Positions 62-34,048 of a DNA stretch of 37,220 nucleotides are shown piece after piece. Location: the IMG/VR virus record IMGVR_UViG_2718218102_000005, positions 1 through 37,220 of that record; one strand, given 5' to 3'. The position numbers were made by a program, and so were the translations under genes. The first letter of the stretch is position 1. Each line of letters starts with the position of its first letter. The notes beneath the pieces are model-generated. The model was not told where the DNA came from and ran no database searches. It saw only the letters and a program-made list of their open reading frames with translations. The DNA is from a virus. Lineage: Duplodnaviria; Heunggongvirae; Uroviricota; Caudoviricetes.

Positions 62-310
62 ATGCGTATTGAAATCTGCATAGCCAAAGAAAAAATGACT
101 AAAATGCCAACCGGTGCTGTGGATGCGTTAAAGGAAGAATTAACCCGACGCATCAGTAAACGTTATGACGATGTAGAGGTGCTCGTAAAAGCCACCAGCA
201 ACGATGGCCTTTCTGTTACACGCATCGCAGATAAGGATTCTGCAAAAACTTTTGTTCAGGAGACTCTGAAAGATACCTGGGAATCTGCTGACGAGTGGTT
301 TGTTCACTAA
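62..310 (+). CDS. dinI: DinI-like SOS damage-inducible protein
   Basis: 82-aa ORF; MRIEI... start and ...[11 protein letters not shown] end match the DinI family as I recall it; SD-like gaggga upstream; LexA boxes just 5'. Confidence 0.75.
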
Positions 311-3643: not shown

Positions 3644-4188
3644 GCCTCCATCGCTTTATCAGGTTTGTCGGTGTTACTGCCCTGACCGTTCTCTCTGTGA
3701 CGATGCCCGTTATAGGCAAGCCGCATCGCTGACATGGTGGTGCCGCTGGAGTCGCACAGGTCTTTCACCTGTCCTGTCACTTCCAGGTCCATTTCAAAAC
3801 GTGCTTTAGGTGAATTGCGAAACGTGATCGTTTTACCTGCACCGTCCACCACGATCCCCTCCCGGGTCAGCGTCACGGACTGCCCCTGATCGTCATAGAC
3901 AGCCACCTCCCCCGTCTGCAGCCCTTTCAGGCGGTAGCGCCGGTCCGACACCGTAACAACCACCGCATGAGAACGGTCGCCATCCGGAAACAACACCACC
4001 GCTTCCGCACCGCTGTTTGCCCTTGCGGTAAAACCGTAGGGTTCAAGATGTTCAACCCCAGCTTTGGGTTCACCGGCAATCAGGGACACATCCACGGTCT
4101 GACATTTCGTGGCGGCACTGATGCTTTTCACCACGGCCCGCCCAATCAGGCCGAGGAGTTGTCGCTGCATGGCTTCAATCGTCCTCAT
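3640..4188 (-). CDS. Baseplate assembly protein V-like (Mu gp45-like spike)
   Basis: 182-aa ORF; 4-nt overlap with neighbours; position in Mu-like baseplate cluster. Confidence 0.6.
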   Translation of the reverse strand: MRTIEAMQRQLLGLIGRAVVKSISAATKCQTVDVSLIAGEPKAGVEHLEPYGFTARANSGAEAVVLFPDGDRSHAVVVTVSDRRYRLKGLQTGEVAVYDDQGQSVTLTREGIVVDGAGKTITFRNSPKARFEMDLEVTGQVKDLCDSSGTTMSAMRLAYNGHRHRENGQGSNTDKPDKAMEA

Positions 4189-5267
4189 CAGAACGGGTCC
4201 TCCTGTACTCTGGCTTTTTTCTTTTTCCGCGCGCCGGGGGCTTCGGGTTCAGGCAGATAAGCATCAGGCGGGCCGACACGGATTTCCGTCAGGGTGCCGT
4301 TCTGGTCCTGAGTAAACGTGACTTCCGAAACAAGCAGTTCGGTATTGTCGAAACCACAGACCGGATCAAAGACAATCACCCGCTGGTTGGGCTGCCACAG
4401 CGTACCGTTACCCTGTCGCCAGCCCTGCACCACATAGGTGGTTTCATCCGTCCGCGCCGCCCGTTGTCTGGCTTCAAAGTCCGCACGGGCAATACAGCCT
4501 GCCCCCGTAGCCTGCCCTGTCTGCCTGATATACATCGGACGGTAACGGGCAATAAATGCGTCCTCTGTGCGGGCCCGCAGCGCGGTGGTGGTGGCCTCAC
4601 CGAAATCATCGTCGTTTCCGGCACGCTGCCCCGCCACCTGGTAAACAGAAAACCGCTCCCGGATACTCTTCTCCGTATCGCAGGAAAGGATGTTTTCCCC
4701 GAGTACCAGCGCAGTATGTGCCCGCGTTGAGCCAATACCGCCAATCACCAGCCTGCCGTGCGGGTCGTCGTAAGCCAGTGCCTGCTGCTGACCGAGTATT
4801 TTGTTGATTACCTCAATCACCGTTTCACCGTGATCAGGCTGAACATCAGGAATAACACCCGACGGCGCACCGCTGTTCACCACCTCAATGCCGAAAGGCG
4901 CAGCAAGCGCCTGCGCAATCTGCACCAGCGAGCGTCCGTTAAACTGTGTCGGTTCGGCTGCACAGTCAATCAGGTCAGCGGTCAGACTGCGTCCGGCAAT
5001 ACCGGTGCTGACCGAACGGGCATCGTAACGAACGGGCGTCGCCTCCACCCAGCCGGTGATCACCAGCTCATCACCAATCAGCACTTCCACTTTTGAACCG
5101 TTTTTAATGCGCGGCTGAAGCGTGGTGATACCCTCATCTCCCGGCCACTGGCGGGTGATCTCCACACTGAAATCCCGCGCCAGCCGTTCAATACCGGCAC
5201 CGATGCGCACCGATGTCCAGCCATTCCACTCCCGGCCATTTACCCGTAGCGTGACATTGTCGTTCAT
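4188..5267 (-). CDS. Tail/baseplate hub protein, late control D-like (Mu gp44-like)
   Basis: 359-aa ORF directly downstream of the circularisation protein N-like gene. Confidence 0.6.
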   Translation of the reverse strand: MNDNVTLRVNGREWNGWTSVRIGAGIERLARDFSVEITRQWPGDEGITTLQPRIKNGSKVEVLIGDELVITGWVEATPVRYDARSVSTGIAGRSLTADLIDCAAEPTQFNGRSLVQIAQALAAPFGIEVVNSGAPSGVIPDVQPDHGETVIEVINKILGQQQALAYDDPHGRLVIGGIGSTRAHTALVLGENILSCDTEKSIRERFSVYQVAGQRAGNDDDFGEATTTALRARTEDAFIARYRPMYIRQTGQATGAGCIARADFEARQRAARTDETTYVVQGWRQGNGTLWQPNQRVIVFDPVCGFDNTELLVSEVTFTQDQNGTLTEIRVGPPDAYLPEPEAPGARKKKKARVQEDPF

Positions 5268-21608: not shown

Positions 21609-21687
21609 TTAGCCCCCTCTTAATTGCTGTTGGTCCTCTCAGATATGAGGGGAAGGGATCTTAATGACAGTCTGTTTATTATTTCAG

Positions 21688-21945
21688 TCAAATACTACCC
21701 TGTTGATGATTTCTCAGAAGCGAACTTGACTCCCAGGGGAAACTCAACTTTCCGTTAAAACCACCAGCAGACATTCGTTCAATTTCCACAGAAATATCAC
21801 TGAGCCGTTCTTCAAGCTCTGCTTTTTCTTTTACCAGACGGTTATAGCGGCTTAGATGAAGCTTTTGCTGCTCCAGCCAGTCTTCAAGCTGTTCAACAGT
21901 CATACCAGGGTTAAAAAAATATGGCTGCTGCTTTTCGCCCTGCAT
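21688..21945 (-). CDS. Hypothetical protein, first ORF of the late operon
   Basis: ORF track 21688-22014; start refined to ATG 21945 (MQGEKQQPYFFNPGMTVEQLEDW..., GGAGG SD 7 nt upstream) because the track extension runs through the terminator hairpin. Confidence 0.4.
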   Translation of the reverse strand: MQGEKQQPYFFNPGMTVEQLEDWLEQQKLHLSRYNRLVKEKAELEERLSDISVEIERMSAGGFNGKLSFPWESSSLLRNHQQGSI

Positions 21946-21960
21946 TATTGACCTCCAGAA

Positions 21961-21985
21961 AAGCAAAAACCCCGCCGAAGCGAGG
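21961..21985 (-). terminator. tR'-like intrinsic terminator of the late leader
   Basis: On the minus-strand RNA: CCUCGC-UUCG-GCGGGG (6-bp stem with one G.U pair, UUCG loop) followed by UUUUUGCUU; about 8 nt upstream of the SD of the first late ORF. Confidence 0.45.
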
Positions 21986-22035
21986 TTTGTTATGATTTCG
22001 TTAACGGCAGACATACAAAGCCCATCGTTAGGAGA

Positions 22036-22095: not shown

Positions 22096-22848
22096 TTATC
22101 TTGTCACTTTTCTCAATTGTGTCTCTGCATATGCTTCTTCCTGCCAGCACTTTGTAACCAGTTTATCAATGACATCTGCATATCCTTTGTACCACTGATA
22201 ATCCGTCAGGTCCGGTACCAGCTTCTGGACATGATGCCGCGCCAGTGTGGTTGGTAAACGGCTAAACCGGTTTCCATTGCAACGCCCACAAATCTTATAA
22301 ACAGGCGCACCATGAAGCCGGGTTCTTTTTTCATCCAGTACAATACCTTTCCCCTTACACCCTCTACACGCTGTGCTGACTTCTCCCTTACCATGACAAT
22401 GCTGACATAGTTCCTTCACCCACTCTTCCTTGATAACAGATTCCCCGCTTCTGGAGTGTTTCACCACTTCGCGCAATACATTATGAAATCCAGTACCAGC
22501 ACAATGCTCACAGCGAGCCTTACTTGCCGCAGACCTGGAATAATCAGCAAAGGCAAAATTCACAAGGTAAGGAATGATCTGTAGCCGGGTTTCTTCACTC
22601 AATTTATTCAATGTCGGGTTATCCAGTGCCATCGCGTAATTGAGCAGACCTTCAATCGCAAACTGAGGATCCTGAACACCAACTTTTGCCAGGAATAAGG
22701 CAAACCCAAGCGGTGCTTTCGACTGCACCATCCCCTGCGCAGCCATCACATCCGTAATTGTTAAACCACCAGAGCCTGTCGCCGGTGCGTCATCGCTCAG
22801 TTTTGGAGATTTCGGGGAGTAATATTTCGGTAAGGCTTCAAGGTTCAT
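22096..22848 (-). CDS. Late-gene antitermination protein Q (QuuQ-like)
   Basis: 250-aa ORF with several CxxC zinc-finger motifs (CEHCAGTG, CQHCHGKG, CRGCKGKG, CGRCNGN); sits immediately upstream of the late promoter and lysis cassette. Confidence 0.75.
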   Translation of the reverse strand: MNLEALPKYYSPKSPKLSDDAPATGSGGLTITDVMAAQGMVQSKAPLGFALFLAKVGVQDPQFAIEGLLNYAMALDNPTLNKLSEETRLQIIPYLVNFAFADYSRSAASKARCEHCAGTGFHNVLREVVKHSRSGESVIKEEWVKELCQHCHGKGEVSTACRGCKGKGIVLDEKRTRLHGAPVYKICGRCNGNRFSRLPTTLARHHVQKLVPDLTDYQWYKGYADVIDKLVTKCWQEEAYAETQLRKVTR

Positions 22849-22861
22849 GCTCGTTCTCCAC

Positions 22862-23857
22862 TTACGCCAGTACGCCTATTGCCAGCGCACGATCGATAAA
22901 ACGAAATATCAGCTCCAACTGGGAGCCATACTTCTCTTCAAATGCCACGGTATCCGCATGCAGCTCGTCGTGATGCTTTCTGCACAAAGGCAACACAAAG
23001 AGGTCATGCGCTTTTGTACCCATTCCACCCTGACCGTGACCTATCAGGTGGTGGGGATCATCAGCAGGCTTTCCACAACATGCACACGGCTGCGTCTTAA
23101 CCCAGCGCGTGTACTTTTCGTTAACCCAGCGGCGACGTTTAGGGCGTAACATAAAAGACTCCGGCGACTCCGGATCCACTTTCAGCTCCAGCACCTTTTT
23201 CGCTTTATCCTGGATAATGCTGGTGGCAGGAACCGAAGGAACAAGGTCACTCTCCCGGGTGACAGACGGCACAACAGGCTTTGGTAATCTCAGTGCCTTA
23301 CGGGCTGCACTTTCCGGTAAGGCATCCGCCAGGTCATTACGAATCAGCCACCAGCACAGTTCCGGCATTGTCACAACGTGACTATCATCAAAACCGAGAT
23401 CCCGACGCACAACAGACAACACCCAGCGGGCACAGTTATCCGTTGCCATTGATTCCAGCCGCTCCGTGAACTGATCGCGCAGCTGGTTATCACAGTGCCA
23501 GCACAGACGGATTGCGCCCGGAGCGTGTCGCATTGTGGTCATGTTCTCGCTGTGCCAGTCGGAATGAGGCCACTGGCAGCCTTTTTCACGAAGTAACCAG
23601 CTTTCAAGACATTCCACGCCACCAGCACGACGGATCACTGCCTCATTGCGGAACACGGCCCGAACAGCAGGATCATCCGCCAGCGGTTGTGATGCCGCGG
23701 GAACGGCACCACTGGCGAAAGATGAATAACGCTCCGGCTCAGGCTCCAGCAGGACACGCCCCTGCATAAACAGGGGCATCAGCTCTGAACCTGGCCTGAA
23801 CAATACGATCCCCATACGCGGGGCAATTTCAGGGGTCAGTAGTGCTCTCACGGTCAC
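22862..23857 (-). CDS. DUF968-family prophage protein with C-terminal HNH-like motif
   Basis: 331-aa ORF; C-terminus CACCGKPADDPHHLIGHG...LCRKHHDELH; positioned just upstream of Q, as in other E. coli lambdoid prophages. Confidence 0.55.
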   Translation of the reverse strand: MTVRALLTPEIAPRMGIVLFRPGSELMPLFMQGRVLLEPEPERYSSFASGAVPAASQPLADDPAVRAVFRNEAVIRRAGGVECLESWLLREKGCQWPHSDWHSENMTTMRHAPGAIRLCWHCDNQLRDQFTERLESMATDNCARWVLSVVRRDLGFDDSHVVTMPELCWWLIRNDLADALPESAARKALRLPKPVVPSVTRESDLVPSVPATSIIQDKAKKVLELKVDPESPESFMLRPKRRRWVNEKYTRWVKTQPCACCGKPADDPHHLIGHGQGGMGTKAHDLFVLPLCRKHHDELHADTVAFEEKYGSQLELIFRFIDRALAIGVLA

Positions 23858-23858
23858 C

Positions 23859-24701
23859 TCAATGAACGGTATCGAGCAGCTTTAACAGCTCAGGGAATCG
23901 GGATTCGAAGAAATGCGGCTGCGTCTCGCGCGGATTTGCGGGACTGGTGATGTTCTTGCCGAACATGCAGCCTTTCGCTGTCAGCGACCAGAATTTTTTG
24001 ATGTTGTTAATCGCGGTACGGCTGTATCGTTCGCGTTGTTCAACGATCCCCAGCTTCGCCATCTGGTGATATGCCTGATTAGCCGTCAGGCGGATACCAT
24101 ACTGTTTCAGCAGTGCACTCAGTGACAGCGTGGGGCGACTTGAGCCATCGTGTGCATCAGCAGGAGCATCAATGGCATAGCGCGGTGCCAGATTCGGTAA
24201 GCCAACAGCCTCCTGGAGTTTCTGACAGGCTCCAAGCACTGAAGAGTTAGACAGGTTTAATTCCCGGCGCATAAAGTCCAGCAGAATCACGCCAGCCTGC
24301 ATCTTGTCAGCAGCCTGCCCGGATAATTTTTCCGGTGCGCTGGTTACCATGTCGAAAGTGCGGATCACCTTCAGATGGAATGACGGGCTGATCCACATTG
24401 CATAGGCATACACCAGTTCCTTACAGACATATGTTCCGCCATTCCGCCCTTCTATTTTACTGACAGGTTTACTACCCAAATTTTGGGTAGTTTCATTGAA
24501 TGAACCGACACCCAGATTTTGGGTATCGATCAATTCCTGAACCAGCTCAGTAATCTGTTGGCTGGAAAGAAACTTTCCCGGCTCCTTGGTTCTGGCATTT
24601 GCACCAGATGCTACTGCTGCGCGATGCAGATCGTTCAGGCTGTAACGTCCATAAGCATCACGACGAACTTCAATACCATCAATGACCATCAGATTATTCA
24701 T
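23859..24701 (-). CDS. KilA-N domain protein (antirepressor-like)
   Basis: 280-aa ORF; N-terminus MNNLMVIDGIEVRRDAYGRYSLNDLHRAA matches the KilA-N DNA-binding domain as I recall it. Confidence 0.65.
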   Translation of the reverse strand: MNNLMVIDGIEVRRDAYGRYSLNDLHRAAVASGANARTKEPGKFLSSQQITELVQELIDTQNLGVGSFNETTQNLGSKPVSKIEGRNGGTYVCKELVYAYAMWISPSFHLKVIRTFDMVTSAPEKLSGQAADKMQAGVILLDFMRRELNLSNSSVLGACQKLQEAVGLPNLAPRYAIDAPADAHDGSSRPTLSLSALLKQYGIRLTANQAYHQMAKLGIVEQRERYSRTAINNIKKFWSLTAKGCMFGKNITSPANPRETQPHFFESRFPELLKLLDTVH

Positions 24702-24720: not shown

Positions 24721-25110
24721 TCAGGCGGCTGCACCCGCCGTTTTCTCGTACTTACTGATAGTGATCTCGACCTTCCCTTCCGGGATAACCGGTCCCCACT
24801 CCACCAGCATTCTTTTCACCTGACTGTCGTCTTCCCACACACCCGCGTGGGTCAGGGCGTCAAACAGCGCCTTGTTATAGTTGTCCAGATCGCGGATCCG
24901 GTTATCCGGAGGAAACAACACGATCTCCACTGAAGCAGGTGCCGACGTTGGTTTTGGCAGACGACGTAACTGCTCAACTATTGCTGCACACGCCGCGCTC
25001 TGGAATTTGCGCCCCGCCGCGCTTATCAGGCTCTTACCTGCAAACGCCCCTTTGTTGGGGTGTCGCCAGTACGTGTTCACGCTGGGCGGAAAAGGCAGGA
25101 TCAGCTTCAT
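24721..25110 (-). CDS. rusA: Holliday junction resolvase RusA
   Basis: 129-aa ORF with RusA-type motifs (LPFPPSVNTYWR..., RDLDNYNKALFDALTHAGVWEDDSQV); start overlaps the upstream gene as ATGA. Confidence 0.8.
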   Translation of the reverse strand: MKLILPFPPSVNTYWRHPNKGAFAGKSLISAAGRKFQSAACAAIVEQLRRLPKPTSAPASVEIVLFPPDNRIRDLDNYNKALFDALTHAGVWEDDSQVKRMLVEWGPVIPEGKVEITISKYEKTAGAAA

Positions 25111-25433
25111 GCTTTCAGGCCCCTCTCATGTAACCAGTGGGTTGCACGCAGCCTTGCGTTTTCCTCACCGGCAAGCAGTGAGCGGATAATCCCGACCGCC
25201 TCGCTGTCGTCGTCCTTCACCGTGGTATGAAGCGTTATCCCCCGGGCCACGCCACGCTTTATCGTGATGACGCCTTTTTTCTCCAGTGCGCGAAGATGCT
25301 CCACCGCTGCATTCACTGAACGGTATCCCAGCATGGTTGCCACCTCCTGATTGGTTGGCGGGAAGCCACGTTCTTTCTGGTAAGAAATCAGCATATCCAG
25401 CACCTGCTGCTGGCATTGAGTTAATGTCGTCAT
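25107..25433 (-). CDS. LexA-like DNA-binding-domain-only protein (no S24 peptidase domain)
   Basis: 108 aa; the first ~70 aa (QCQQQVLDMLISYQKERGFPPTNQEVATMLGYRSVNAAVEHLRALEKKGVITIKRGVARGITL) align by eye with the LexA N-terminal winged helix; no Ala-Gly cleavage site or Ser/Lys dyad follows; ATGA-coupled to Dam upstream and RusA downstream. Confidence 0.65.
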   Translation of the reverse strand: MTTLTQCQQQVLDMLISYQKERGFPPTNQEVATMLGYRSVNAAVEHLRALEKKGVITIKRGVARGITLHTTVKDDDSEAVGIIRSLLAGEENARLRATHWLHERGLKA

Positions 25434-26083
25434 GCCGCCATCTCCCTGACCAGTTTTTCCGCCTGCTGGCGAACCTGCGCCAGAAAGGCCTCACCACATG
25501 CCTCAAGTTCATCGCGCCCGATGTAGCTGATTGCCGGTCCCTTCCAGGTCTTGTCGAAAACAGCAATAGCACCAGCGAAGAAAGCGCCTGTCGGCACCTG
25601 CTTCTCGTCCTTCGGGATAAACCAGGCTGGCAGTTCAAAACCAATACGCCCGCGAATAAAAGCAATATGGTCTGCATCTTCCGGCCACCAAACTTCGCTG
25701 GTGGCAGCTTTGATCAGGAAAACATAGCGCCCACCTTTATCACGCATGGCACTGGCATGTTTCATGATGTAACGCATGCCGGTGATGTATTGCCCCTCAT
25801 GCTGACTGGCGCGGCTGTACGGGGGATTACCAAAGGCAGCACCTTTAAGCTCCGCAAGACGTTCTGACCAGTCATGCGCCAGCGCGTTGTCTTCCGCCGT
25901 GTAATACGCGGCACATTTGGCGTTATCACCGTCAGTGAACAGATCCAGAACAAACGGACCAAACAAGGTGTTAATTCCCCAGAAAATGTTGTCCGGCGTG
26001 CGCCACTGATCGCCCACTTCCTTCAGTTCATGGGCTGGTTTGTTCCGCAGTTCTACCAGCGCCTGGCAATATTTATTACTCAT
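25430..26083 (-). CDS. Phage-type DNA N6-adenine methyltransferase (Dam-like, orphan)
   Basis: 217-aa ORF with the N6-MTase motif FGNPPYS; no adjacent restriction endonuclease. Confidence 0.8.
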   Translation of the reverse strand: MSNKYCQALVELRNKPAHELKEVGDQWRTPDNIFWGINTLFGPFVLDLFTDGDNAKCAAYYTAEDNALAHDWSERLAELKGAAFGNPPYSRASQHEGQYITGMRYIMKHASAMRDKGGRYVFLIKAATSEVWWPEDADHIAFIRGRIGFELPAWFIPKDEKQVPTGAFFAGAIAVFDKTWKGPAISYIGRDELEACGEAFLAQVRQQAEKLVREMAA

Positions 26084-26175
26084 TAAGCCCCCACGTAAAA
26101 AGCATCCGCAATGTCTCCGGAAGTACAGCCCGGATGGGCTTCAATGAATTTCTGAACGTCATTTAACAGACTCAT
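26083..26175 (-). CDS. 30-codon ORF filling the O-Dam gap (possible remnant of a helicase-loader gene)
   Basis: Own translation MSLLNDVQKFIEAHPGCTSGDIADAFYVGA; GGGGG SD 5 nt upstream; stop overlaps the Dam ATG as TAATG. Confidence 0.25.
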   Translation of the reverse strand: MSLLNDVQKFIEAHPGCTSGDIADAFYVGA

Positions 26176-26177
26176 GA

Positions 26178-27170
26178 TCACCCCCTGAATCCTGCCGGGA
26201 TCTGGCTGTAGTCCACGTTGTCGTAACTGGATTTGAAATACGGGTCTTCGCGTTTTTCTGTGTATGTGCTGACGGACGGCGATAAGCGCAGGGAAAGCTC
26301 ATCCCATTTTTCCCGCAGCTTCGACGGACTGAGCACGTTACGGCACCAGAACGGATCGCGGCTGACGCGGCTGTACATCTCGCAGATTTGTTTGTGAGTA
26401 CGACCATCCTGCACACACATCAGGCGAATTTCGTTTGCCCAGGCTGTCCAGTTAGGTTCTTTGGGACGAACCACCTCGCCGTCACATTCGGCGGCCTGCT
26501 CGTACAGGGCGATGATTTTTTTCCAGAGCCACTGTGCGCAGGTCAAATCATCCTGCGTTCCCCACTGGCGCTTTTTAGGACTGAATACAACCGCATCAGG
26601 ATGGCGAGTTAAAAACTCCTGTTCAGCCGTCTGCGTGTCCGGTTGCGAAGCGTCCGGACGAGAAGAGGTTTTATTCTCTGTAGTAATCTCTGTTGTATTC
26701 TCTGTAAGATCATTGGGCCATTTTGACCCGATGACAGCGTGTCGTTTTGAACCAATGGATCGTATCATTTTGCGCCCATCCATCAGGTCACTTTGACCCG
26801 ATGGAGAAGTGCATTTTGACCTGATGGATTCGTTCACTTTGACCTCTTCTAAAAGCTCACTTTCATAGTTGATCGTGTAGAAGTTGGTCATGTCACGCTT
26901 CGATTTATTGAGTTGCTCGCGACGCAAAACCCCAAGTGATTTCAGGCTTGCAAATGTGCGTTTCAGAGTGGACTCTGACCAGAACGGAAACTGCTCCAGC
27001 CACTGTTCTGTCGTGTTATAAACCCAGCGAATTCCGCCATGCTCAGTGCCTGAATTCGTTTCATTCAGCCAGTAATGAAGCTGCTGCAACACAATTGCCT
27101 CATTCAGACCAATACGGCATGCAAGATCACGATTTATCACAATGGGCTGGGATGTCATTAACAGGCTCAT
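26178..27170 (-). CDS. Replication initiation protein, lambda O-like, with internal origin
   Basis: 330-aa ORF downstream of the cro/cII-like genes; an iteron array lies inside the coding sequence in a low-complexity linker, as in lambda O / ori-lambda. Confidence 0.65.
   Translation of the reverse strand: MSLLMTSQPIVINRDLACRIGLNEAIVLQQLHYWLNETNSGTEHGGIRWVYNTTEQWLEQFPFWSESTLKRTFASLKSLGVLRREQLNKSKRDMTNFYTINYESELLEEVKVNESIRSKCTSPSGQSDLMDGRKMIRSIGSKRHAVIGSKWPNDLTENTTEITTENKTSSRPDASQPDTQTAEQEFLTRHPDAVVFSPKKRQWGTQDDLTCAQWLWKKIIALYEQAAECDGEVVRPKEPNWTAWANEIRLMCVQDGRTHKQICEMYSRVSRDPFWCRNVLSPSKLREKWDELSLRLSPSVSTYTEKREDPYFKSSYDNVDYSQIPAGFRG
26718..26850. repeat. Origin iterons: six direct repeats (~14 bp core TTTTGACCCGATGG, ~23-24 bp period) inside the O-like gene
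   Basis: Read directly: ttttgacccgatg (26721), ttttgaaccaatgg (26745), ttttgcgcccatcc (26768), ctttgacccgatgg (26791), ttttgacctgatgg (26815), ctttgacctc (26837), followed by an AT-richer stretch. Confidence 0.65.
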
Positions 27171-28343: not shown

Positions 28344-28480
28344 AGCTTTCTCCTATCTGTAAGTAGTAAAGTTGTTGATAACTTCGATTATACAACTACA
28401 ACAACTTTTATCACAACTTTTAGATGTTGGAAAGCTAAAACATAAAGTTGTAACCTCAATAAAAACGAGGGGGATATGTT
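28344..28480. promoter_or_regulatory. Immunity-region operator/promoter (OR-like; PR for cro, PRM for cI)
   Basis: Repeated half-site AAAGTTGT / ACAACTTT occurs at least five times; perfect TATAAT on the minus strand (28392-28387) with TTGTGA 18 nt upstream as a PR candidate. Confidence 0.55.
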
Positions 28481-29167
28481 GTGAAAACATTGGCAGAAAG
28501 ACTAAAAAGCGAAAGAGAAAAAGCAGGAATGAGTCAGGCGCAACTAGCTGAAAAAATTGGGCTTTCACAACAATCCGTAGCGAAAATCGAGAATGGAGAA
28601 ACTCAACAGCCTCGGAAAATTAAAGAGATTGCTAAAGTGTTAGGGGTTTCTCAAAAGTGGTTGCAATTGGGCATTGAGGATAACGCGTCTTTCCCAGACC
28701 TTGTTGTAAAGGAGGCTGAAAGTACAGCATTAGATCCTGACATTTTTGCAAACATTCCAGTCCTAGATGTCGAGTTATCAGCGGGTAATGGATGTTTGGC
28801 TGAAATAGTTGAATCAACTGTAGACTGGTTCCCGCTAAGAAGGATTGATTTAAGAAAAGCTGGTGTATGTGTCTCCAATGCAAAGATCGTAAAAATTTGG
28901 GGCAATAGTTTACTACCTGTACTTAACAATGGAGATTTTGTTGCTGTTGATGTTTCCCAAACGGTTCCTATTCGTGATGGGGATCTTTATGCCATACGTG
29001 ATGGCGTATTACTTAGAGTTAAAATATTGATCAATTTACCTGACGGTGGTCTGATTCTAAGAAGTTTCAATAAAGATGAGTATCCAGATGAAATACTCAC
29101 CTTCGAAGATAGGCGTTCCAGAATTCACGTTATAGGTAGAGTATTCTGGTCATCGCGCACTTGGTAA
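28481..29167 (+). CDS. CI-type repressor (HTH-XRE N-terminus + S24 LexA-like peptidase C-terminus)
   Basis: 228 aa, GTG start at 28481 with SD gaggggg; N-terminal HTH (MSQAQLAEKIGLSQQSVAKIENGE), candidate Ala-Gly cleavage site (ELSAGNG) and Ser/Lys dyad context (IWGNSLLP ... LRVKIL). Confidence 0.85.
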   Translation: MKTLAERLKSEREKAGMSQAQLAEKIGLSQQSVAKIENGETQQPRKIKEIAKVLGVSQKWLQLGIEDNASFPDLVVKEAESTALDPDIFANIPVLDVELSAGNGCLAEIVESTVDWFPLRRIDLRKAGVCVSNAKIVKIWGNSLLPVLNNGDFVAVDVSQTVPIRDGDLYAIRDGVLLRVKILINLPDGGLILRSFNKDEYPDEILTFEDRRSRIHVIGRVFWSSRTW

Positions 29168-32835: not shown

Positions 32836-33035
32836 GCGTGATAAAAACTCATACAGGAATTGTTATCACCCGAGACGGTCCGCAGGTAAAAAAACTGCAC
32901 CAGACAAAGCGGATGTGGGTCGTCGGAAAAAACGAGTTTTACCACAAAGAAACCGGACGCCGCCACTTTGCAGAAAATACTCGCCGCCGACTGCTGATCG
33001 ATACCATCAAGCCTATCGAGGTGAAGCATGTTTAA
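32832..33035 (+). CDS. Hypothetical small basic protein (67 aa)
   Basis: ORF starting with ATGA overlap to the DUF551 gene stop; no family recognised. Confidence 0.35.
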   Translation: MSVIKTHTGIVITRDGPQVKKLHQTKRMWVVGKNEFYHKETGRRHFAENTRRRLLIDTIKPIEVKHV

Positions 33036-33276
33036 ACAGAACGAAAAATCTATCGCTCAAATTGCTGAGTATATCCCGCGTGCGTGCCGGGGTATGCAGT
33101 TGCAGGAAGCCAAAGCGCGCCTGGAGAAAAAAATTGCGCTCTATATTGATGACGGCTGTGATGCCGCCGTTCTTAACGCGGCGTTCGCACCAGCTCTTAA
33201 CTGTCATACGCGAGAGTCTTTTTTTTCGTGCATCGCAGCGCAGATCCGTAAAGGAGGCACCAGTGAGCGAGATTGA
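33028..33276 (+). CDS. Hypothetical protein (82 aa)
   Basis: ORF MFKQNEKSIAQIAEYIPRACRGMQLQEAKARLEKKIALYIDDG...; its end overlaps the GTG start of the Ea22-like gene. Confidence 0.4.
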   Translation: MFKQNEKSIAQIAEYIPRACRGMQLQEAKARLEKKIALYIDDGCDAAVLNAAFAPALNCHTRESFFSCIAAQIRKGGTSERD

Positions 33277-34048
33277 CTATCAGGCGTTGCGTAAGGCAGC
33301 ACAAAACTATCAATCGACTCTGGCGTGGTATCAGGAAAAGCCAGACAGTCCAAACGCTGAACAGGATTGTGATGCAGCTTTAGCGGCGTTTAAGCGAGAA
33401 ATCCGTCATCGGGAAGTGGACATTATCGCCGGGCTGTTGGATGAGCTGGACGAAAAACAGCAATACATCAAACTCCGCGACCAGGAGAACGAGGATATTG
33501 CGCTAACGGTAGGGAAGCTGAGAGTTGAGCTTGAGGAGACAAAATCAAAACTCAACGAGCAGCGTGTGTATTACGAGGGAGTAATCGCGGATGGAAGTAA
33601 GCGCATAGCAGAGTTGCAGACAAAATCTGCACCAGATTCGTTTGGCATCATCGGTGAAAATATTCGAACACAGGACAATCATATAACGTCAGACCCTATG
33701 TTTTGTGTGTATCAAAAGCGCGAAATCGTTGTTGATGCTGATTATGACTATGACCGGATTGTCTGGGTTGATGAAGATGGCAATGAAGCCAATAAACTCC
33801 AAAGTCGTCGTCTCGAACTACTTCATGAAAACTTTCGGGAGCCACCAGAAAAATGGCGGCGCGTTGCTGTGAAAGATATTGATGAATTCGTTACCTGCTG
33901 TTTTACCGAACAGGGTTGTAAAGACTACCTGGCAGCCAATGGTCACAATCTTCGCTTGCCATTTATATATGTAAAAAGCGGTTTCAGGAACGCTGAATAT
34001 ATCGGCATAAGAAACTGGCTTGCTGGCATTCGCATCAAAGGAGAGTGA
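33263..34048 (+). CDS. Ea22-like early protein (coiled-coil N-terminus)
   Basis: ORF track 32915-34048; GTG at 33263 has a perfect AGGAGG SD upstream (261 aa from VSEIDYQALRKAAQNYQ...); the long coiled-coil region and C-terminal domain resemble lambda Ea22-family proteins as I recall them. Confidence 0.55.
   Translation: MSEIDYQALRKAAQNYQSTLAWYQEKPDSPNAEQDCDAALAAFKREIRHREVDIIAGLLDELDEKQQYIKLRDQENEDIALTVGKLRVELEETKSKLNEQRVYYEGVIADGSKRIAELQTKSAPDSFGIIGENIRTQDNHITSDPMFCVYQKREIVVDADYDYDRIVWVDEDGNEANKLQSRRLELLHENFREPPEKWRRVAVKDIDEFVTCCFTEQGCKDYLAANGHNLRLPFIYVKSGFRNAEYIGIRNWLAGIRIKGE

Follow-up and report, generated by a model that had tools for sequence, protein, structure and literature searches.

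LexA(Ind-) mutants and the LexA 1-84 fragment bind DNA as LexA does, in a manner that is not abolished by RecA*. Among phages, the sole characterized LexA-domain-only protein is gp6 of GIL01, a tectivirus of Bacillus thuringiensis. This truncated LexA homologue, 44% identical to the LexA of its host, recognizes a palindrome of its own, GaCACAnnTGTGaC, located at P3, a late promoter from which it activates transcription (Fornelos et al. 2018, PMC6182141). Here we describe a LexA-domain-only protein from an SfV-like prophage of a tailed myovirus, contained in a stretch of 37,220 nucleotides (IMG/VR virus record IMGVR_UViG_2718218102_000005, positions 1 to 37,220), which as a whole is referred to as the window. 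The gene occupies 25107..25433 on the minus strand, between genes for a Dam-type methyltransferase and a RusA-family resolvase, and its 108-residue product is a true homologue of the domain with which LexA binds DNA. It combines a LexA-type fold and retained recognition residues with the absence of the protease domain and a position in the early operon of the phage. We tentatively propose, at somewhat short of even chances, that it is a RecA-insensitive LexA mimic, that is, an uncleavable SOS-box repressor produced from the early-right operon. A first-pass annotation of the same DNA had already seen in it an uncleavable SOS-box binder, a reading that the present analysis supports in part.

The relationship to LexA is evident in both sequence and fold. 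Residues 1-65 match the complete PF01726 profile (LexA_DNA_bind, positions 1-65 of 65) with E = 2.9e-19 and 69 bits against a cut-off of 23.7, the match to the solved E. coli LexA DNA-binding domain has an E-value of 6.9e-16, and phrog_362 is matched over its full length (positions 1-105 of 106, 1.7e-59). When the predicted model is overlaid on 3jso, the complex of E. coli LexA with DNA, the root-mean-square deviation (rmsd) is 1.3 A at 50% identity; the model shows a winged helix-turn-helix of three helices and a β-hairpin wing (codons 1-68, 25230..25433, minus strand). An unrelated winged-helix family, the alternative that the first-pass annotation had left standing, is ruled out, LexA being the best match by sequence and by fold. 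The recognition helix (codons 39-52, 25278..25319, minus strand) reads SVNAAVEHLRALEK, where E. coli LexA has SPNAAEEHLKALAR. Of the five residues with which E. coli LexA contacts DNA, S39, N41, A42, E44 and E45 (PMC3091678), four are retained in the alignment and E44 is replaced by valine; the protein likewise preserves H46 and, in the wing, R64, G65 and I66. The protein is a member of PF01726 and phrog_362 and stands outside the LexA repressor proper, as the LexA equivalog model TIGR00498 is matched at positions 1-91 only, with a score of 70.9 for a cut-off of 110.95.

Beyond the winged helix, an acidic linker predicted with low confidence (HTTVKD..., codons 69-74, extending to about residue 75; 25212..25229, minus strand), with predicted local distance difference test (pLDDT) values below 50 at residues 71-75, leads to a two-helix tail (codons 75-103, helices 75-87 and 93-103; 25125..25211, minus strand) modeled at a pLDDT of about 87. 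Its hydrophobic residues L86, L87, A93, A97, W100 and L101 are kept in relatives down to 40% identity, and structure searches found no specific match for it. This tail may be a dimerization module. Comparable arrangements occur in other phages. Among about 180 related viral contigs (IMG/VR loci, given here as L numbers) whose gene neighborhoods were mapped, L085-L092 (about 4001-4470) are loci in which the LexA domain is fused to an unrelated C-terminal domain of about 90 residues that has no Pfam match, at the equivalent slot of the operon (Dam ... X, RusA, KilA-N, DUF968, Q). Elsewhere, four proteins of 140-165 residues (P0155, P0160, P0164 and P0131) contain two LexA DNA-binding domains in tandem and no S24 domain, a layout that marks them as probable natural single-chain pseudo-dimers. 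Helical tail, fusion and tandem duplication look like three answers to the pairing of two LexA heads.

The absence of the S24 peptidase domain, as previously claimed, is confirmed, the protein ending at residue 108 with no match to PF00717. The accompanying statement that there is no cleavage site needs qualification, as an Ala-Gly-Glu at residues 88-90 is visible and aligns weakly with A84-G85-E86 of the LexA cleavage site (LLAGEE, residues 86-91, pairing with VAAGEP, residues 82-87), the HMMER alignment confidence being low there. Nevertheless, A88-G89 is rejected as a functional site, since close relatives have N or K in place of G89, the motif is missing from divergent ones, and its location is the turn predicted to connect the two tail helices. 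PADLOC gave no meaningful match for the protein, and a component of a defense system is likewise rejected.

In the mechanism that we envisage, the gene would be transcribed as part of the early-right (pR-like) operon, along with replication and nin-type genes, after inactivation of the S24-type repressor or upon infection, and its translation is probably coupled to that of its neighbors because of the ATGA overlaps at both of its ends. The product, modeled as a LexA-type winged helix-turn-helix followed by a flexible acidic hinge and the two-helix tail, would dimerize through this tail in place of the missing C-terminal domain of LexA. The dimer would then bind SOS-box-type CTGT palindromes (CTGT-N8-ACAG), as the retained recognition residues suggest, its predicted targets being the two boxes in front of the dinI-like gene of the prophage and the SOS operators of the host. 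RecA* would presumably be unable to inactivate the protein, because the S24 domain and a conserved Ala-Gly site are missing, so that LexA-controlled promoters of host and phage would be shut again while the host LexA is depleted. The expected outcome during lytic growth is a damping of SOS functions, of LexA-controlled toxins and colicins, of LexA-controlled antirepressors of rival prophages and of the SOS-induced genes of the phage itself.

A candidate target lies within the prophage itself. Two canonical LexA boxes, CTGTTTATCCATACAG (3-18) and CTGTATACAAACACAG (31-46), stand just upstream of a DinI-family gene (62-310, plus strand; PF06183, 1.6e-19), as the first-pass annotation had described, and about 0.6 exact CTGT-N8-ACAG sites would be expected by chance in 37 kb. 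Phage mEp460 shares this doubly boxed arrangement (gp21 DinI, boxes at L184 23255 and 23283), which in both prophage and phage stands at the tail-fiber end. A closer association with SOS elements is found in a divergent Klebsiella-type clade, represented by Klebsiella phage Kp4865-4 and about 41-47% identical to the window protein in tblastn, in which the gene lies on the same strand as, and directly 3' of, canonical TA-rich LexA boxes. A box is present within 1.6 kb upstream in 25 of the 28 loci, for a chance expectation of about 0.02 per locus, and it is retained despite a varying spacer sequence. The gene after the box varies, being dinI-like in 19 loci and a full recA in 2, with no gene in 7, and in eight loci there is another boxed gene, whose product weakly resembles pre-cleaved UmuD'. 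The result is an SOS cassette in the nin-like region (L150-L176 and L183, with the LexA-like gene at about 4001-4400 in each, and Kp4865-4, L265 2304-3309), ordered as LexA box, dinI-like gene, a conserved open reading frame (orf~85), LexA-like gene, conserved orf67, DUF968 and Q; recA takes the place of the dinI-like gene in L174/L175, and the gene is missing in L150-154 and L160/161. This position downstream of LexA boxes, together with dinI-, recA- or UmuD'-like genes, supports an SOS-related role.

Two further features of these loci were observed. The UmuD'-like protein, of 109 residues and separately boxed, begins exactly as pre-cleaved UmuD' does (GFPSPA.DY.EQ) and lacks the Ser nucleophile motif. 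Throughout the Klebsiella-type clade (L156 3930-4000, L160, L170, L174, L265), there is strong conservation of the approximately 60 nucleotides immediately 5' of the LexA-like ATG, which read through as RHRPEQPIPAA.RRET; either an alternative start located upstream or a conserved regulatory or RNA element could account for them.

Several observations weigh against the interpretation as an SOS-box repressor. The box association is clade-specific and amounts to guilt by association, the Klebsiella-type boxes being sufficiently explained by control by host LexA; in the window itself and in the 56 loci of the P0123 clade, the surroundings of the gene contain no SOS box. The nin region, moreover, is known as a hot spot where accessory genes insert. 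Near the DNA, the protein differs from E. coli LexA by R28 to N as well as E44 to V, and no member of the phage family has Glu at position 44; both positions also vary among real LexAs. Some clade members carry E45 to L or N41 to Y, and binding specificity may therefore have drifted. Dimerization through the tail is something that we infer, and the one precedent, gp6, has its own palindrome and activates transcription (PMC6182141).

In the window, the gene belongs to a compact minus-strand operon. Upstream lies the 217-residue Dam-type phage N6-adenine methyltransferase (25430..26083; PF05869, 9.7e-46 and 156 bits, above threshold; TIGR01712, 255.6 bits, cut-off 97.05), which has no adjacent restriction enzyme gene and whose PADLOC match is to the MTase_II model only. 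Downstream lies the 129-residue RusA-family Holliday-junction resolvase (24721..25110; phrog_34; PF05866, 6.1e-15 and 56.4 bits, cut-off 22.8), which is a member of the family other than the K-12 orthologue, since it scores 71.5 with the K-12 RusA equivalog 'exception' model NF007305, under the cut-off of 200. ATGA overlaps join the methyltransferase stop to the LexA-like start (25430..25433) and the LexA-like stop to the RusA start (25107..25110), each read directly as 'tcat' on the plus strand, and a GGAG Shine-Dalgarno sequence lies about 9 nucleotides 5' of the LexA-like ATG. The three open reading frames, their overlaps and the identity of both neighbors thus agree with the first-pass annotation. 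Further downstream in the operon, Pfam identifies a KilA-N protein (23859-24701), a DUF968/HNH-like protein (22862-23857) and antiterminator Q (22096-22848), all on the minus strand. A consensus scan indicates a candidate pR-like promoter (TTGTGA-18-TATAAT, 28387..28416, minus strand) in a cI/cro-type intergenic region, beside an HTH_3+S24 repressor gene (28481-29167); it is the likely source of transcription, and from it the order runs through a CII/CP76-like gene, a replication gene (26178-27170), a 30-codon remnant, Dam, the LexA-like gene, RusA, KilA-N, DUF968 and Q. The remnant, MSLLNDVQKFIEAHPGCTSGDIADAFYVGA (26083-26175, minus strand), is what is left in frame of a 162-residue PerC-family gene that occupies the equivalent position in mEp460 and other phages, after an internal deletion of 396 bp (132 codons) in the window; its stop still overlaps the Dam start (TAATG). 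The window contains no RNA families or tRNAs.

The main rival to a LexA mimic is a role internal to the phage and comparable to that of gp6, in which a LexA-derived domain has drifted to a private phage operator and controls a phage promoter, positively or negatively, for instance in the nin, Q or late region, host SOS being unaffected. We consider this rather unlikely. Such a drift is consistent with the precedent of gp6, with the changes at positions 28 and 44 that are specific to the family and with the variable residues 41 and 45 of some clades, as well as with the wide occurrence of LexA-domain-only proteins in unrelated phages and the constant position of the gene in a slot of the nin-like region just upstream of DUF968 and Q, whose synteny is preserved in nearly all related loci. 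However, the recognition helix is far closer to that of E. coli LexA than a gp6-like role requires, the late genes are already served by antiterminator Q, a terminator-like site being present at 21967-21988, and no conserved palindrome other than the SOS type has emerged. CTGT/ACAG palindromes with spacings of 0-24 yielded no convincing private operator; between 21600 and 28500, inverted repeats are confined to coding sequence and no gp6-like palindrome was found at a late-promoter -35; and the immunity region, when scanned, revealed operators of the ACAACTTT type and no private operator. A function tied to the coupled neighbors, as a controller of Dam or as a targeting or regulatory partner of RusA, would fit the ATGA overlaps on both sides and the recurrence of the Dam/LexA-like/RusA trio in numerous E. 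coli, Shigella and Stx phages, but it is very unlikely in view of the synteny. Dam is often 0.5-2.7 kb upstream or missing, a PerC-family gene takes its place before the LexA-like gene in SfIV-type and some E. coli-type loci, and in the P0139 clade both RusA and Dam are absent and orf85 and orf67 flank the gene. An obligatory linkage to Dam or RusA is therefore rejected, and the tight packing in the window, in an operon where stop/start overlaps are usual throughout, is taken as ordinary compaction with no functional triad, because the adjacency is not conserved among relatives.

There is at most a slight chance that the protein interferes with SOS without repressing it, whether as a decoy that displaces LexA from its boxes, as a poison of the LexA dimer or by engaging RecA* through a remnant of the cleavage region. 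DinI and RecA, both SOS modulators, are neighbors in one clade, and the weak LLAGEE alignment could be taken for such a remnant; on the other hand, the C-terminal domain by which LexA dimerizes and touches RecA* is absent here, and the poorly aligned Ala-Gly is unconserved and lies within the predicted helix-turn-helix tail. That the gene is a neutral passenger or a decaying fragment of a captured lexA is equally improbable. Prophages commonly contain truncated versions of host genes, and fragments or fusions account for many database entries, but the 52 distinct alleles from the related contigs show 47 synonymous codon variants, 14 non-synonymous ones and not a single internal stop, from which we conclude that the gene is functional and under purifying selection. 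Furthermore, the full-length family, tail included, is conserved down to 40% identity, it forms a full-length PHROG, and the gene is present in isolated, viable phages.

If the protein is indeed an uncleavable SOS-box repressor, a more general proposal can be formulated, which we put forward as doubtful. Enterobacterial lambdoid and SfV-like phages would carry an operator-level anti-SOS device, in which the LexA mimic re-represses the host SOS regulon and LexA-controlled rivals (colicins, toxins, antirepressor-controlled prophages) after lytic commitment, sometimes within one LexA-boxed cassette with DinI-, UmuD'- or RecA-like genes. In the Klebsiella-type clade, the same device would instead give an SOS-induced negative-feedback loop inside lysogens.

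LexA boxes were also observed elsewhere in these phages. A good box between RusA and KilA-N is present in 10 of 80 E. coli-type loci; in these (TACTGTATTTATGAACAGTG, L018 4788-4807 and nine others) it lies about 100 nucleotides 5' of the KilA-N gene, in a variant form of the intergenic region, which suggests that the boxed KilA-N gene, antirepressor-like, may be under SOS control. The corresponding gap in the window is 19 nucleotides long and contains no box. In mEp460, one good box, TACTGTAAAAATAAACAGTG (L001 3471-3490), overlaps codons 3-9 of gp53, a DNA methyltransferase gene of the late region, and another, TACTGTATGTAAAAACAGTA (L001 12522-12541), is situated some 165 nucleotides into gp38, which is annotated as an S24-type repressor gene. 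Thirteen related loci have this second box or a version of it with one base changed, and neither box is found in the window. An exact CTGTTTTACCGAACAG at 33898-33913 of the window is probably due to chance, as it lies inside an Ead/Ea22-like open reading frame (32915-34048), with no obvious promoter context, and a one-mismatch site at 21670-21689, just after a stop codon, was discarded as probably fortuitous.

The family is abundant. Of 5426 complete E. coli genomes, 2232 (41%) contain the gene, mostly at 95-99% identity, with the protein 100% identical to WP_000210180.1-type loci, under the RefSeq name "LexA family transcriptional regulator". It is carried by the isolated phages SfV, SfII, SfIV, cdtI, mEp460 and mEp390 and by Stx2c- and Stx2a-converting phages, and more distant versions are found in Klebsiella phages; a profile scan of genome contigs with the family alignment returned genuine host lexA genes only. 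The prophage itself is a mosaic of an SfV-type structural module with a Mu-like contractile tail (window 1-22000; structural genes 98% identical to Shigella phage SfV), an early-right region that matches mEp460, cdtI and Stx2c-type phages at 97-99%, and an immunity region of its own, with the HTH_3+S24 repressor and its ACAACTTT-type operators. The gene is real and widespread, and it is routinely annotated. Literature searches, in which subscription journals were largely outside coverage, so that absence is not proof, found no functional study of this family and only catalogue mentions, such as pham 237 of Stx phages (PMC8136144), in line with the first-pass annotation; gp6 is the nearest characterized case. 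What is new here is the conserved helical tail, the recognition helix close to that of the host protein, the conserved slot in the nin region and the SOS gene cassette of one clade.

The SOS response governs mutagenesis, persistence, the release of colicins and Shiga toxin, and prophage induction, and a candidate RecA-proof LexA look-alike in the prophages of about two-fifths of sequenced E. coli strains, Stx-converting phages included, is thus of general interest. Should it bind SOS boxes, it would represent an unrecognized layer of SOS control, a plausible weapon between prophages and a natural, compact "LexA(Ind-)" tool; its presence in Stx2c and Stx2a phages and in so many complete genomes would then make it a widespread modifier of SOS mutagenesis, toxin release and prophage competition. 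Should it have a private operator, as gp6 has, phages would have reused the LexA head for their own circuitry in a second, independent instance.

Compared with E. coli LexA (1lea, 1jhh, 3jso), the protein shares the N-terminal winged helix-turn-helix, about half of its residues being identical, the recognition core S-x-N-A-A-x-E-H-L, the RGI of the wing and an acidic flexible hinge after the domain. It differs in having a 35-residue two-helix tail instead of the S24 protease and dimerization domain (Ser119/Lys156) and conserved Ala-Gly, in the exchanges at positions 28 and 44, and in belonging to a phage early operon rather than an autoregulated host operon. The LexA(Ind-) mutants and the 1-84 fragment are a functional model for RecA*-proof LexA binding, although they are laboratory mutants or short-lived host products, whereas the gene described here is naturally selected and stable-looking and has a presumed pairing module. 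With BlaI/MecI-type repressors (2g9w, 1okr) there is the common plan of a winged helix followed by a short helical dimerization region, but no sequence relationship, and the weak whole-length structural matches, with an rmsd of about 4-7 A, are driven by the winged helix. DinI-like prophage proteins and plasmid PsiB are likewise products of mobile elements that damp SOS, and DinI-like genes are physically linked to the LexA-like family in one clade and present in the prophage of the window; they target the RecA filament, whereas the protein described here would work at the level of the operator. Finally, GIL01 gp6 is also a phage-encoded truncated LexA that lacks the protease domain, belongs to an early operon and binds DNA through a winged helix. 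Nevertheless, gp6 consists of little more than the domain, and its class, of about 60-70 residues, domain-only and from betatectivirus early operons, is not matched by a 108-residue protein with a conserved helical tail and γ-proteobacterial recognition residues, from a tailed SfV-like myovirus that has a Q antiterminator. The two phage lineages are unrelated, and gp6 and the protein of the window represent independent captures.
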